Origin: a virus
Taxonomy: Duplodnaviria > Caudoviricetes
Virus record (IMG/VR): IMGVR_UViG_3300033420_000009
Coordinates: 1-49,687 of that record
Strand: one strand, 5' to 3'
Length of the DNA stretch: 49,687 nt
A program made the position numbers and the translations under genes. The notes under the pieces were generated by a model. That model did not search any database, was not told where the DNA came from, and saw nothing but the letters and a program-made list of their open reading frames with translations. Shown here one piece after another: positions 4,613 to 8,900 of the stretch; within the stretch, counting starts at the first letter, position 1, and each line of letters starts with the position of its first letter.

Positions 4613-4677
4613 TGGAGAGGAATGGATTCGAACCATTATCACCTCGCGAGCTGCACTAACCCTTATGCTACCTCCCC
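4613..4677 (-). ncRNA. tRNA-like RNA 2 with truncated anticodon arm (65 nt)
   Basis: acceptor GGGGAGG/CCTCTCC+A, D arm GCAT-AAGGGTTA-GTGC, T arm AATGG-TTCGAAT-CCATT; only 15 nt between D and T arms. Confidence 0.8.
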
Positions 4678-4935: not shown

Positions 4936-5207
4936 CGTCTTAGAATTATGGTGTCACCTACTATGTAGGATTCTAACATTCTTCTACTTACTGTAACACC
5001 TTTAGCCAAATCTTTCAACCTGTATTCTCTGTATTCTTTGTAAGTATTATTCTCAACAGATAACACAACAGCTTTGAATTCAGGATGTTCTGCATTGAAT
5101 TGACTCTTTGAATTGCCACATGAGGATAAAAATCCTATTGCCATTAATACAATCAGTATAATGGCTATTGTACCGAAAAATCGGTTTTCTGAAATTGTTT
5201 CTTTCAC
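4932..5207 (-). CDS. putative lipoprotein
   Basis: hydrophobic helix followed by lipobox-like LSSC; GTG start. Confidence 0.65.
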   Translation of the reverse strand: MKETISENRFFGTIAIILIVLMAIGFLSSCGNSKSQFNAEHPEFKAVVLSVENNTYKEYREYRLKDLAKGVTVSRRMLESYIVGDTIILRR

Positions 5208-5211
5208 TTGT

Positions 5212-5503
5212 TTAGGGATTAAGGTTGATTAATTTTAATGCTTCTATTAGTCCAGCTTCAAGAGCTTCTTCGTATGATTTTTGTGGTGGAATACTTCCCC
5301 ATGTTAAAGCAGGGTTTAATAGTTCTACTATTATAGCTCCCATTGTTGGGCTTATAACAATATGAATATTATGATTTTCTCTTAACCATTTCTGAAGTAA
5401 GGATTGAGTTGGAGGTAATCCATTTTTTAAATGATTTATTAAATCAAATCCTTTCTCTTTAGACAGCTTGGCTGTTTCGAATGTGATAAGTTGATCTGTC
5501 ATA
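5212..5503 (-). CDS. conserved Bacteroidota-phage hypothetical protein
   Basis: start reassigned to MTDQLITFETAKL; PTQSLLQKWLRE and YEEALEAG motifs typical of a recurrent phage family. Confidence 0.7.
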
Positions 5504-5530
5504 TATAATAGTTTAATTGGTTTAAAAAGA

Positions 5531-5720
5531 ACTACCTGTCCACTCCAAGTGTGGAATACCTCAGCTACAGTTGGATTAGCTACATCAACTCCCACCCTGG
5601 GTTTGGTATCTGAAAACAAACAGCGCTCCTTGGAGAGCTATAACTTATGGGATCAATGGTATTCAAAGATCAGCACCAATATTTCATGGTCCGGTTATTG
5701 TTTATGATTCAGCAGGTAGT
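5531..5720 (-). ncRNA. ~190-nt multibranch RNA immediately 3' of tRNA-like 3
   Basis: closing stem ACTACCTG/CAGGTAGT; internal CTGAA/TTCAG, ATAAACA/TGTTTGT, ATAAC/GTTAT, ATACC/GGTAT, TCCAC/GTGGA. Confidence 0.55.
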
Positions 5721-5722
5721 AT

Positions 5723-5807
5723 TGGGATGAGTTAGGGAATCGAACCCAATCTTGCAGGAATGAGATAGATAAGAACCCTGCCGTGCCGTCTGCTACACTC
5801 ACTCATC
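5723..5807 (-). ncRNA. tRNA-like RNA 3 with 18-nt loop in place of the anticodon loop
   Basis: acceptor GATGAGT/ACTCATC+CCA, D arm GTGT/GCAC, stem GCAGG/CCTGC around GTTCTTATCTATCTCATT, T loop TTCGATT. Confidence 0.75.
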
Positions 5808-5814
5808 AATGTGG

Positions 5815-5934
5815 TCCAATCCTTATGTGGTATCAAACAGGGATTTTCAGAGCGCGACTTCTGAGCTTGCCTACCGTGTATCCACTCCAGTAGAACTGGA
5901 CTTATGAGTAGTTATCTCACTGTATAGGATTGGA
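5815..5934 (-). ncRNA. stem-closed RNA upstream of tRNA-like 3
   Basis: TCCAATCCT/AGGATTGGA closing stem; TCCAG/CTGGA and TCAGA/TCTGA hairpins. Confidence 0.55.
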
Positions 5935-5956
5935 TAATATTTTAAATAGAAAGTTA

Positions 5957-6265
5957 CTCAGTGATACGTCTATATAGACACAAACAAAATCAAAATCAAG
6001 GGCAAAGACCTTTCTCTGCAACAAAGGCAAAGGCGAAAACTCAGTCAGTTTTGTAGTCTAATTTGTTCCCGAAGGATAACCTATACTACGATGTGGTATT
6101 TTTTGAAATCCACTAAAACATTTGGTTTTCACAGAGAAAGCGATTGGTTTTCAAGATTTTCTTTTTGCAAAAGAACATTGCATAAGTTATTTGTGTAAAT
6201 TTAAAGGACGTATCACTGGGCATAAAGAAGAGTAAACTCGGCTTTTGCTTTGTTTACCCTTCACC
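5957..6265 (-). ncRNA. ~300-nt structured RNA with hexamer repeats, 3' of the 308-aa gene
   Basis: 11-bp stem 6252-6262/6227-6237, 12-bp stem 6207-6218/5959-5970, 9-bp stem 6132-6140/6010-6018, cUUCGg loop near 6070; YTTGNY repeats at 5977-6010 and 6020-6040. Confidence 0.7.
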
Positions 6266-6274
6266 TTTGTATTA

Positions 6275-7201
6275 TTACTCTTTTGGAAGAGTAAAGAGGA
6301 ACATATCAACTACCGGCTGAAAGCGCTCATCGATATTTATCCTGAGTGCAACAAGCTCACTGATCTTAGATTGTCTGTCAATCTCAAACTGAGTTTGGAT
6401 TGTGCGGACTCTCTCTTGAATGACTCTGAATTCTCTCTGATACTGTACCATTAACTCATTATTCGAAGTTTCGTTATTCACTTGAGTAGTTTTGTTAATA
6501 GAGGCAATACGGGAATTCTCTTCAGTTACAAGGTTCTTCACCTTGGCTTTGAAGTAGTTCACTCTTTGTTCATACTCTCTGTGCTTTTGAGCAAGAGATT
6601 CATGAATTTCCATCAGTTGTTTGCTTGTGTGATGAGTGGTTATTGTAACTGGAGATTTAGTCCCTTCAGTTACTACCAACCATTCAATCGCAGGAATACC
6701 GGGAAGTTCTTTTCTGAGTTTATCCAATGGATTACCAGAATGAATGAACTGTCCAATATGAGCAGCGTATGCTTCAGCTTCCAGGAATTCGTTTACCTCG
6801 GATACTGTTAGCTGTTCCCATCCCCAATCTTCACCTACATTAGGTAAATCATCTTCCTCATTAAGAGTAGGATAAGCTGGATAAACGATACCAGAAATAC
6901 CAGCTTTGGAGCTTTTAACCTGAGTGATTAAAGCATCTTTAACTTTTATGTTCTCCATCAAGAATGCCTGACATGCTGATAATCTTGCTTTCTCAAGCAA
7001 TAGAGCTGTCACATTCTCCGGTAATGGCTTAGCTGCTACAATTGTGTGTTTATCACCAGCTATTTTCACAGACTTAGAAGCGTTATTCACGCCTGTAAGT
7101 ATTGAGGTCAACTCTATTACTCTCTGATTACAGAGATTAGAGATGGACTGAGCTTGTGACATGCTTAATCCTTTTTTCGCGGTCAATGAATGTTTTCTCA
7201 C
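6275..7201 (-). CDS. 308-aa predicted coiled-coil/helical protein of unknown function
   Basis: long ORF, GTG start after AT-rich leader; heptad-like Q/E/K-rich C-terminal half. Confidence 0.8.
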   Translation of the reverse strand: MRKHSLTAKKGLSMSQAQSISNLCNQRVIELTSILTGVNNASKSVKIAGDKHTIVAAKPLPENVTALLLEKARLSACQAFLMENIKVKDALITQVKSSKAGISGIVYPAYPTLNEEDDLPNVGEDWGWEQLTVSEVNEFLEAEAYAAHIGQFIHSGNPLDKLRKELPGIPAIEWLVVTEGTKSPVTITTHHTSKQLMEIHESLAQKHREYEQRVNYFKAKVKNLVTEENSRIASINKTTQVNNETSNNELMVQYQREFRVIQERVRTIQTQFEIDRQSKISELVALRINIDERFQPVVDMFLFTLPKE

Positions 7202-7246
7202 AGTTATATTGTATTTGGTTTATAGAAATAACAATTTTAATAGGTA

Positions 7247-7286
7247 ACTACACTCCTGCCTGTTACAACAAGAGTGTAGTCTTTTT
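7247..7286. promoter_or_regulatory. intergenic hairpin (terminator-like on +, or 5' leader hairpin of the 308-aa gene)
   Basis: ACTACACTC/GAGTGTAGT 9-bp stem followed by CTTTTT on +. Confidence 0.4.
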
Positions 7287-7291
7287 GGTAA

Positions 7292-7807
7292 TTACTGAGG
7301 GTATTCCATTTGTGGTTCCCTGTTATCAACTTGAACCGGAGCATTAGCATTCCATGAGGATAAAGAGGTATAATCTGTATTTCTTTTAATACCCTGATAG
7401 AACTTCTTTACCACTTTGTAATCAATATCTTCCCAAGATTTAGAAATGCTGTTTTTGTATGACTCATCAGCAGTTGCACAAGAATCAGCATCTTCCTGAG
7501 TTTTGAAATACCTAACAACAAACTGATGGTAATCATATTCATACTGAACTTTATCAATCCACATATTGTACTCTTTGAATCGGGCAAGACCAATAATTTC
7601 AGAGTGTTTAATTTCACTCTCAAGAGCAACTTCTTCAGGTTCGTATATACCCAACAATACTTCCATTGCTAATGTAGCATTTGGAGTTGCATTGATTATC
7701 TGCATAATAGCTTGGATATTTACACCTGGCATTTTGGATTCTAATGCTATTGCCATAATACGATCAATACCTGTTTCTTTTTTGTCTATTACTTTTACTG
7801 TTTTCAT
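7292..7807 (-). CDS. hypothetical protein
   Basis: start reassigned to MKTVKVIDK (ATG 7807) with AT-rich leader. Confidence 0.75.
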   Translation of the reverse strand: MKTVKVIDKKETGIDRIMAIALESKMPGVNIQAIMQIINATPNATLAMEVLLGIYEPEEVALESEIKHSEIIGLARFKEYNMWIDKVQYEYDYHQFVVRYFKTQEDADSCATADESYKNSISKSWEDIDYKVVKKFYQGIKRNTDYTSLSSWNANAPVQVDNREPQMEYPQ

Positions 7808-7840: not shown

Positions 7841-8900
7841 CAGGTATAACTGTTGACCTGTATATTTTATGTTCCGAGTTACGTATTCTACCAGCCAGCA
7901 CACGCATTCATGGTGCATCTAATAAGATAGTGAATATAGTTTCACTTGGATAGCTCGAACAAAATGTCCCCTTTGCGGTAGTCTTACCTGCATTGCCTAA
8001 TAAGGGGATAAAATAGGACTTATCGTATGTGTATCCATGATAGTTCGCTGACCAGGCTAAGTTTGAGGGATTTACATCACATTGTTAGGTCATAATATGA
8101 AAACCACTGTTAATAATAATATTGGATGCTTATGATGTTCTGCTTATCCCGTGGACCTGTTACCGGCATCACCGATATGGATTAATTATCTCCACTCATA
8201 CGGAATCCCACCGTAGTATATCCTGCTGTAATCCACAGGACTTAATCAGGGTTTTTCCCTGATCCATATTGTAACAATTACACCCTGGGCTGACTAAATC
8301 GCTTTGTACCAGCCTGCACGATCAGAAGTATTGGACTTTCTATTGTAGCAGTATGAGTAATTGTTATGTGTCCGACTATACGGTTCACCGAAGTGAGTTA
8401 TGAATTGCACAATAATTTCAATGTGATATACTATTTACTGCGGCACTGTATATCAGAGTAGTAACCGATCTTGTTTATGAGGAGAGCAACTGTCCTATGA
8501 GGAGTACCAAGGATTGATATTTTAGTCCTTGGATTTCATTGTCGTGTATATTTTAATACAAATTTACATAGCACTTATCAAATGCTAATGGTCATGCTGA
8601 GACCCAAATTGTATCGAGCAATTATGCTCTTTTAGTACCGTTACCACACGGTCAGCAATACATTGTTCATGGTAAATAGAACAATGGATTAAGGTTTTAA
8701 GCTACCTATTTCAGGATCATCACTTCCTGATGGACGCTTCGTAATTTTATACTCTGCACTAACTTTGTGTTCATCTCTGTTAAAGATGGTATCAAATACA
8801 ACTGATTAACAGTCAATTGTATTAACACAATAGTAGCCCCATACGATTGTCACCGATTGATAACGGTAAAGAGAGCAGTTTAAAGACATGCTTAGGTCAT
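7841..8900 (-). ncRNA. candidate large (~1 kb) structured ncRNA or ncRNA cluster
   Basis: no credible ORF; more than 15 hairpins and long-range stems; strand inferred from flanking genes and a cUUCGg loop at 8385-8396. Confidence 0.55.

Follow-up and report, generated by a model that had tools for sequence, protein, structure and literature searches.

A phage gene for a 308-aa protein predicted to be mostly helical and the folded non-coding RNA downstream of it are inherited as one unit. The module is compact (~1.25 kb), with neither the protein nor the RNA belonging to a described family in the literature and databases searched. Two tracts of the RNA are built from unpaired hexamers, four in one and six in the other. 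The reading favoured here, to which a probability of about one half is given, is that the RNA acts as a scaffold for around ten copies of the protein, one per hexamer. The module lies in the window, by which is meant the whole 49,687-nt stretch of viral DNA that was analysed (completeness estimate 59%). The window carries terminase, portal, and major head genes, and the closest matches of its head protein are crAss-like phages at ~33% identity. Both the gene (6275–7201) and the RNA (5951–6267) are on the minus strand, surrounded by small genes.

Inheritance of the gene and the RNA as one unit

The protein gene was called with a GTG start and homologue alignments begin at residue 1 of its product. 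A homologue search returned at least 2511 relatives at E ≤0.001, and no Pfam domains were found in the 120 of these that were listed. Family members are 299–350 aa long. The AlphaFold model of the 308-aa protein (pLDDT 86.1, pTM 0.77) predicts two helix-β-hairpin-helix units followed by C-terminal helices, and hence not the plain coiled coil that the first-pass annotation had named. In the family alignment the helices are rich in invariant or near-invariant Ser, Asn, Gln, His, Lys, and Arg residues. An internal duplication was not significant by sequence (hhalign E 0.26–0.3). Stand-alone half-length forms were considered on the basis of 107 short matches, mostly on short contigs, which were taken as fragments without individual check.

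The 308-aa protein has no Pfam family at E 0.1, and none was returned by PHROGs, NCBIfam, a PDB sequence search, or the ESM Atlas. A Foldseek search of the PDB with the predicted model gave nothing with E <0.001. In the VIA fold search the best Z was 6.9 with the whole model as query and 8.5 with the N-terminal unit, and every match was a generic helical hairpin. The sole BFVD match was an uncharacterised homologue. There is thus no match in Rfam, Pfam, or PHROGs and no clear match in the PDB.

The pairing of gene and RNA first noticed in a single sequence extends to homologous genes. The first-pass annotation had named homologous genes without the stems and hexamers as a refutation, and this outcome was not obtained, as the two parts occur together in both directions of search and in two distant lineages. 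Four overlapping scans, which included the window's own contig, yielded 172 loci, 16 of which are too short to judge, leaving 156 whose flank beyond the stop codon measures 300 nt or more. The full RNA follows the gene in 155 of these 156 and the remaining locus has the start of the RNA, then the contig end; the RNA profile was seeded with 35 of the counted loci and many loci recur between scans. A non-redundant set at 90% identity holds 107 loci with a median pairwise identity of 46%. In the reverse direction, the two-tract pattern matched 84 viral stretches, with the gene upstream on the same strand in 78 and an upstream flank of ≤300 nt in the other six. The loci found all come from phage contigs or from environmental contigs and MAG scaffolds whose nature is uncertain. 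Protein and RNA distances correlate over 103 loci (rho 0.65; 0 of 500 permutations), as shared descent alone would produce. The pair has no conserved third member, and even the most frequent neighbour family is present at only 19 of 107 loci.

The stop-to-RNA gap is 120–1470 nt in nine distinct loci, therefore the RNA is independent of contact with the stop codon. Two of the inserts (L064 4895–5050 and L086 4919–5040; 157 and 123 nt) are non-coding in appearance and have no Rfam match, and in L033 the protein gene and the RNA are separated by an inserted RHS-repeat gene (5014–6417).

The module also reaches beyond the main family. A distant homologue family at 21% identity (hhalign probability 97.7) led to 33 full-length loci on gut phage contigs of 47–102-kb scale. 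In this gut lineage, 25 distinct downstream sequences share the plan of the RNA, with five units in the second tract (13 aligned), and in a third lineage the plan was recognised by eye. A head protein related to that of the window is encoded by all three gut-lineage genomes tested and is absent in two jumbo phages of the main family, therefore the module spans unrelated phage groups.

Genes for tRNAs flank 24 of the 107 loci, a count taken over flanks of unequal length and without a background control. In the gut lineage, a tmRNA gene lies a few hundred bases ahead of the module at three of seven loci scanned, and a tRNA or tRNA-like gene closely follows the RNA at three of seven by ARAGORN and at more by eye, often within ~10 nt. 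The tRNA-like gene found right after the RNA in L176–L208 has constant acceptor and T arms and an exchangeable anticodon arm. Examples are a tRNA-Pro in L180 (4156–4242) and genes that could not be assigned in L188 (4159–4227) and L198 (4148–4217). At two loci (L032 3849–3926, L034 3659–3736) ARAGORN calls stop-codon-reading tRNAs immediately 5′ of the gene, and it is possible that these phages are recoded.

The window itself has no tRNA call by ARAGORN. Rfam tRNA matches occur on the minus strand at 4613–4677 and 2726–2836 (47.1 and 44.5 bits), the second being 111 nt long, neither of which ARAGORN calls. A Hatchet ribozyme (8739–8873, minus strand; Rfam, 73.4 bits) lies ~1.5 kb upstream of the 308-aa gene on the shared strand, and a second one is found in L064 (1407–1544), ~2.5 kb upstream of the homologue gene. 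Downstream of the ribozyme in the window, ~1 kb (7920–8900, minus strand) contains no ORF of 60 aa and may have room for further structured RNAs. An AdoCbl-II riboswitch match within it (8359–8435, 20.8 bits) is weak and below the cut-off. The 90-nt gap immediately 5′ of the 308-aa gene contains a 12-bp hairpin (7247–7280, 92%).

Architecture of the RNA

The RNA begins 8 nt past the stop codon of the 308-aa gene and is ~317 nt long. The folding energy of the region is −83 kcal/mol (z −4.73), and none of 100 shuffles was as stable. It is larger than earlier described because its 5′ and 3′ ends pair (P0, 6267–6265 with 5953–5951, covariation helix 1). Hairpin P1 (6227–6262) consists of a 10-bp stem, an internal loop, a 2-bp stem, and a four-base loop that is usually ANAA, and 12 of its 12 pairs change on both sides. 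The long-range closing stem P2 joins 6207–6221 to 5956–5970, both strands being identified by repeat search and covariation, and all 15 pairs change on both sides. The same is true of the ten pairs of the inner stem P3, whose 5′ strand (6131–6140) has a conserved CG ahead of it and whose covarying 3′ strand (6010–6019) is inside the 11–13-nt linker between the tracts. A further stem, P5 (6054–6088; covariation helices 6–7), has a CUUCGG cap in the window, and the shortest members of the family (L087 and L107 among them) lack this stem or have it in reduced form. RNA length across the family is 254–445 nt including margins.

The helices described in the first-pass annotation are all present in the window. 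These are the hairpin just after the stop codon (11-nt arms 6227–6237 and 6252–6262, 91% complementary), the long-range stem with a perfect 12 bp (5959–5970 with 6207–6218) enclosing 236 nt, and the inner stem with a perfect 9 bp (6010–6018 with 6132–6140). Its smaller motifs fared differently across the family. The cUUCGg hairpin is found at ~6074–6069, but CUUCGG occurs anywhere in the RNA at only 34 of 107 non-redundant loci, and the repeated TGAAAACCAA, present in the window, occurs at one of the 107, which is the window itself. Neither TGAAAACCAA nor CUUCGG belongs to the conserved core.

Covariation among 105 sequences recovers P0, P1 with its 2-bp tetraloop cap, P2, P3, and P5. When 59 of the 107 sequences were tested against the named structure, 91.8% of cells were paired and 45 of 47 pairs changed on both sides. 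The structure score was 0.759 versus ≤0.21 for slid controls in the same sequences, a test biased in favour of the structure as it was derived from the tested sequences themselves. The 105-sequence alignment shows no pseudoknot and no loop-tract covariation. Pairings of a loop with a tract and of a tract with the A-rich strand, which came from a single-sequence fold and the repeat search, were rejected because covariation is absent. The RNA matches no Rfam family, including ROOL, GOLLD, and tmRNA.

The linkage of gene and RNA would also be expected if the RNA bound a host factor or acted alone within a shared operon. It could then be an RNA-only assembly, a binder of a host protein, or a 3′ element with a stabilising or regulatory effect on the message. 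In the accessible part of the source, ROOL and GOLLD are structured phage RNAs that form RNA-only cages, often near tRNA islands, and ROOL has no known protein partner (10.1101/2024.12.08.627333). The present RNA is likewise a structured phage RNA, with tRNA genes in the flanks of 24 of 107 loci in a count without background control, but differs in lacking an Rfam match, in being shorter, in having no detected pseudoknots, and in keeping a constant partner gene. A shared operon can yield linkage, yet no other neighbour is kept and this pair persists at 21% protein identity in both jumbo and crAss-like phages. The absence of pseudoknots and of loop-tract covariation also speaks against such a role, and an element tied to the stop codon is hard to reconcile with the tolerance of insertions up to 1.47 kb. 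A role for the RNA away from this protein is given a low probability.

Hexamer tracts and their possible readings

The two tracts flank the 3′ strand of P3. Tract 1 (6022–6046, minus strand) is 25 nt long with four hexamer units of consensus R-N-Y-N-U-U (period 6, permutation p 0.002). Tract 2 (5974–6009, minus strand) is 36 nt long with six units and a near-invariant CUA(U) end (period 6, permutation p 5e-5). Both rows of hexamers in the window are exactly as quoted in the first-pass annotation. At other periods, tract 2 gives p 0.69 for period 3, which is not significant, p 0.13 for period 5, and p 0.003 for period 4, a signal that is weaker than that of period 6 and found in tract 2 only. 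Information per hexamer phase in tract 2 is 1.47, 0.53, 0.85, 0.56, 1.57, and 0.86 bits. The lengths of the tracts are fixed, save for an extra base at one locus, whereas the strands facing them vary by tens of bases, and no tract position is paired with a distant column within the top 60 covarying pairs. The tracts are read as a putative protein-binding array because they combine the lack of distal covariation with a fixed length and a period of 6.

The hexamers follow two rules. Either C is at position 3 or U is at position 4, with both missing in 17 of 385 hexamers from 55 thinned loci (Fisher p 5e-19, a statistic in which thinning does not fully remove relatedness). Similarly, U is at position 6 or G is at the next position 1 (55 thinned loci, p 0.005). 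The strongest couplings within the hexamer are between positions 3 and 4 and between 6 and 1 (z 18 and 17). The constraint on the tracts acts at the nucleotide level. A hexamer-phase matrix for the 3′ tract scores 31–35 bits in the window and two further phage sequences (G001, G002) versus 9–17 bits in shuffled genomes, the matrix being built from the family and hence including the scored tracts. Each of the three sequences carries a single hexamer array. An array that is fixed in length, unpaired, phased, rule-bound, and tied to one gene would most simply serve the product of that gene as a binding track.

VIPR offers a precedent for the binding of one subunit to each short repeat. In the accessible parts of the reports, it consists of a Vipr protein and a vrRNA (10.64898/2026.04.26.720927; see also 10.64898/2026.04.26.720920). 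As far as those parts describe it, VIPR shares with the present module a viral gene adjoining a non-coding RNA in which fixed and variable bases recur with a short period and, on the reading proposed here, one protein copy per repeat. The same parts give VIPR a period of 5 in the form GGY/NN, in contrast to the period of 6 found here with U-U-G plus a pyrimidine. The present RNA differs further in having two short tracts caged between covarying helices, with one array per genome, and in the lack of a target found by contiguous pairing (three phage sequences, 88 loci), and the protein model consists mostly of long helices. As to a Vipr fold, this mostly helical model had no clear PDB match (library to April 2026). 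The module fails the defining motif of VIPR.

A non-contiguous guide of VIPR type would have the protein clamp the fixed bases and display positions 2 and 4 for pairing with a DNA or RNA target, as VIPR filaments do in the accessible text (10.64898/2026.04.26.720927). The alternation of fixed and variable positions fits this, with positions 2 and 4 holding only ~0.55 bits in tract 2, as does tract sequence that is largely uncoupled from protein distance (rho 0.16 versus 0.65 for the whole RNA). However, each genome scanned holds a single array, and the variable positions keep position-specific biases across the 107 loci and are coupled to their neighbours. By contiguous pairing, own tracts matched their own genome at 24, 24, and 21 of 36 across the three phage sequences scanned, versus 21–26 for foreign tracts. 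They were also no better than foreign tracts against their own gene and leader (mean rank 0.48–0.55, 88 loci). Neither an antisense target nor a second copy of the tract was found in the own gene (88 loci) or genome (three phage sequences). A guide of this kind is considered improbable.

The tracts could instead be rows of triplets directed at the translation machinery, with the protein as their carrier. They would then bind tRNA anticodons or runs of codons, or, being U-rich, act as a decoy that diverts the anticodon nucleases of the host. The two strongest couplings lie within a single triplet frame. In the complement of this frame, codons for Lys/Arg/Met alternate with codons for Ser/Thr/Ala, preceded by a near-invariant UAG. 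The setting of the module in tRNA clusters and soon after a tmRNA gene would suit such a role. Synonymous triplets are, however, not interchangeable (ACG 34 versus ACA 4; AGG 83 versus AGA 16) and period 3 is not significant. An anticodon loop needs an invariant U33, then a purine at 37 three bases on, and the hexamer misfits it. No matching coding stretch stands clearly above the shuffled background (best 15.5 versus 9–17 bits). Such triplet rows are an unlikely explanation of the tracts.

A short peptide encoded by the tracts, either as a tmRNA-like tag in the sense direction or as a small antisense gene, is largely refuted and can be given only a very small probability. The sense frame would alternate small and hydrophobic residues and the antisense frame would give Lys/Ser-rich repeats. 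In-frame stops nevertheless interrupt the sense frame at three loci in tract 2 and two loci in tract 1, and the antisense frame at two loci in tract 1. Codon use is not synonymous, and as the linker varies in length (11, 12, or 13 nt at 36, 67, and 4 of 107 loci) there is no common frame across both tracts. The RNA has no tmRNA match and differs from tmRNA in having neither a tRNA-like domain nor a conserved reading frame.

Type III toxins are endoribonucleases of the ToxN/AbiQ, CptN, and TenpN families, accompanied by an antitoxin encoded upstream as a tandem array of pseudoknotted repeats of ~35–50 nt. A system of this type was among the options in the first-pass annotation. The protein would act as a toxin on the host or on a competing phage, kept inactive by the RNA until the latter is cleaved. 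The strict two-part linkage, with zero orphans among loci with enough flank, fits such a system, and the U-rich single strands may be easy targets for nucleases. Against this, the protein has no Pfam family at E 0.1 and its predicted helical model has no recognisable nuclease domain. The RNA lies downstream of the gene as a single caged array, in contrast to a tandem series of pseudoknot repeats upstream, no long repeats were found in 6700–7500 or 5600–6300 of the window, and the loci are all phage contigs or contigs and scaffolds of uncertain nature. This version of the earlier proposal finds little support and is considered unlikely.

Possible relatives and a proposed assembly

Other proteins that read short phased repeats as oligomers, one repeat per subunit, are TRAP on the trp leader, HutP, and Hfq. 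These are small β-rich regulators acting on leaders or sRNAs, whereas the present module pairs a 308-aa helical protein with a self-contained downstream RNA with paired ends. Ro60, a TROVE protein, binds Y RNA, which has paired ends and a pyrimidine-rich single strand. The RNA described here shares both features, but a TROVE match is missing from its partner protein. Among the neighbours (78 of 1077 ORFs scanned, one per cluster) are genes for RNA ligase and peptide deformylase and a single TROVE gene, which accounts for one of the 78 proteins. This Ro60-like gene lies directly 3′ of the RNA in L001 (4339–5916).

Proteins of the DIP1984/DUF6847 family (NF038048, PF20935; structure 3kdq) resemble the present one in being helical and, at some loci, in having a periodic tract within a helix-closed RNA downstream of the gene. 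At five DIP1984-type loci, a closed downstream RNA was seen by eye at three (L213, L214, L174) and not clearly at L215. Foldseek places 3kdq at rank 28 with a weak score (probability 0.60, E 0.5, TM by target 0.38). One helix motif aligns with DIP1984 (hhalign E 0.003–0.09; reversed control 0.31), and the main family alignment gives E 0.49. The 308-aa protein matches neither NF038048 nor PF20935. DIP1984 is not among the 25 families listed of 76 for 65 members, nor among the 20 listed for ten gut members. 3kdq is likewise not among the top 50 VIA matches in three runs, where absence is not exclusion. DIP1984 proteins are single-domain with 150–152 aa, and the present family is twice that length. 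A tentative kinship between the two families is suggested by the weak Foldseek match, the one aligned helix, and the closed periodic RNAs behind three of the five loci.

In L213 and L214, canonical bacterial DIP1984 genes have helix-closed RNAs behind them (downstream of 1950), which have a GUACAAGUGAC motif and U/G-rich tracts in common. The jumbo phage G001 carries its own module plus the DIP1984-like gene L174 (169975–170406), which precedes a helix-closed RNA with 7-nt periodic motifs.

On the scaffold reading, the protein may oligomerise and bind its own RNA, as the first-pass annotation had also proposed. The RNA would be a discrete molecule cut from a longer phage transcript, which is inferred from the pairing of its ends, from the genes that may intervene after the stop codon, and from the tRNA or tRNA-like gene that often follows in the gut lineage. 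Processing of that following gene would set the 3′ end of the RNA in this lineage. The six units of tract 2 and the four of tract 1 would be kept open by P2 and P3. The bases recognised by each subunit would be U at hexamer position 5, U-G across positions 6 and 1, and a position-3 pyrimidine, whereas positions 2 and 4 would remain free. If one subunit sits on each hexamer, the RNA would fix the size of the oligomer, giving a particle of fixed size, and may keep the protein assembled or stored. The weakest step is that this particle aids phage takeover of host translation, a rather doubtful guess made from the tRNA and tmRNA gene surroundings alone.

A bolder reading would have the protein polymerise on the fixed bases of the hexamer, with the free positions forming a new gapped code to be matched to the anticodons of tRNAs, to runs of codons, or to some conserved nucleic acid of the host. 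The module would then be a period-6, all-helical counterpart of VIPR, and a branch of a superfamily in which DIP1984-like helical proteins read RNA rulers of their own period. This combination is a long shot.

The literature searched, with subscription journals outside its scope, holds no description of the gene-RNA pair. Sections 2.3 and 2.5 of a survey of intergenic elements do not mention it, and the accompanying database may list the RNA as an unnamed cluster (10.64898/2026.10.21.760802). The accessible part of that survey names clusters with a period that is a multiple of 3 and a lag-3 peak, which are apparently set aside. The present analysis adds the extension of the family to gut crAss-like phages at 21% identity, tests of coding and of contiguous targets, and the nucleotide rule of the repeat.

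The module is found in jumbo phages as well as in crAss-like phages from the environment and the gut. Should the RNA act as a ruler for an oligomer of the protein, phages would have a novel mode of RNA-templated assembly, which would also be a simple means of building particles of programmable size. Should the free positions pair with a target, the module would be a new RNA-guided system.
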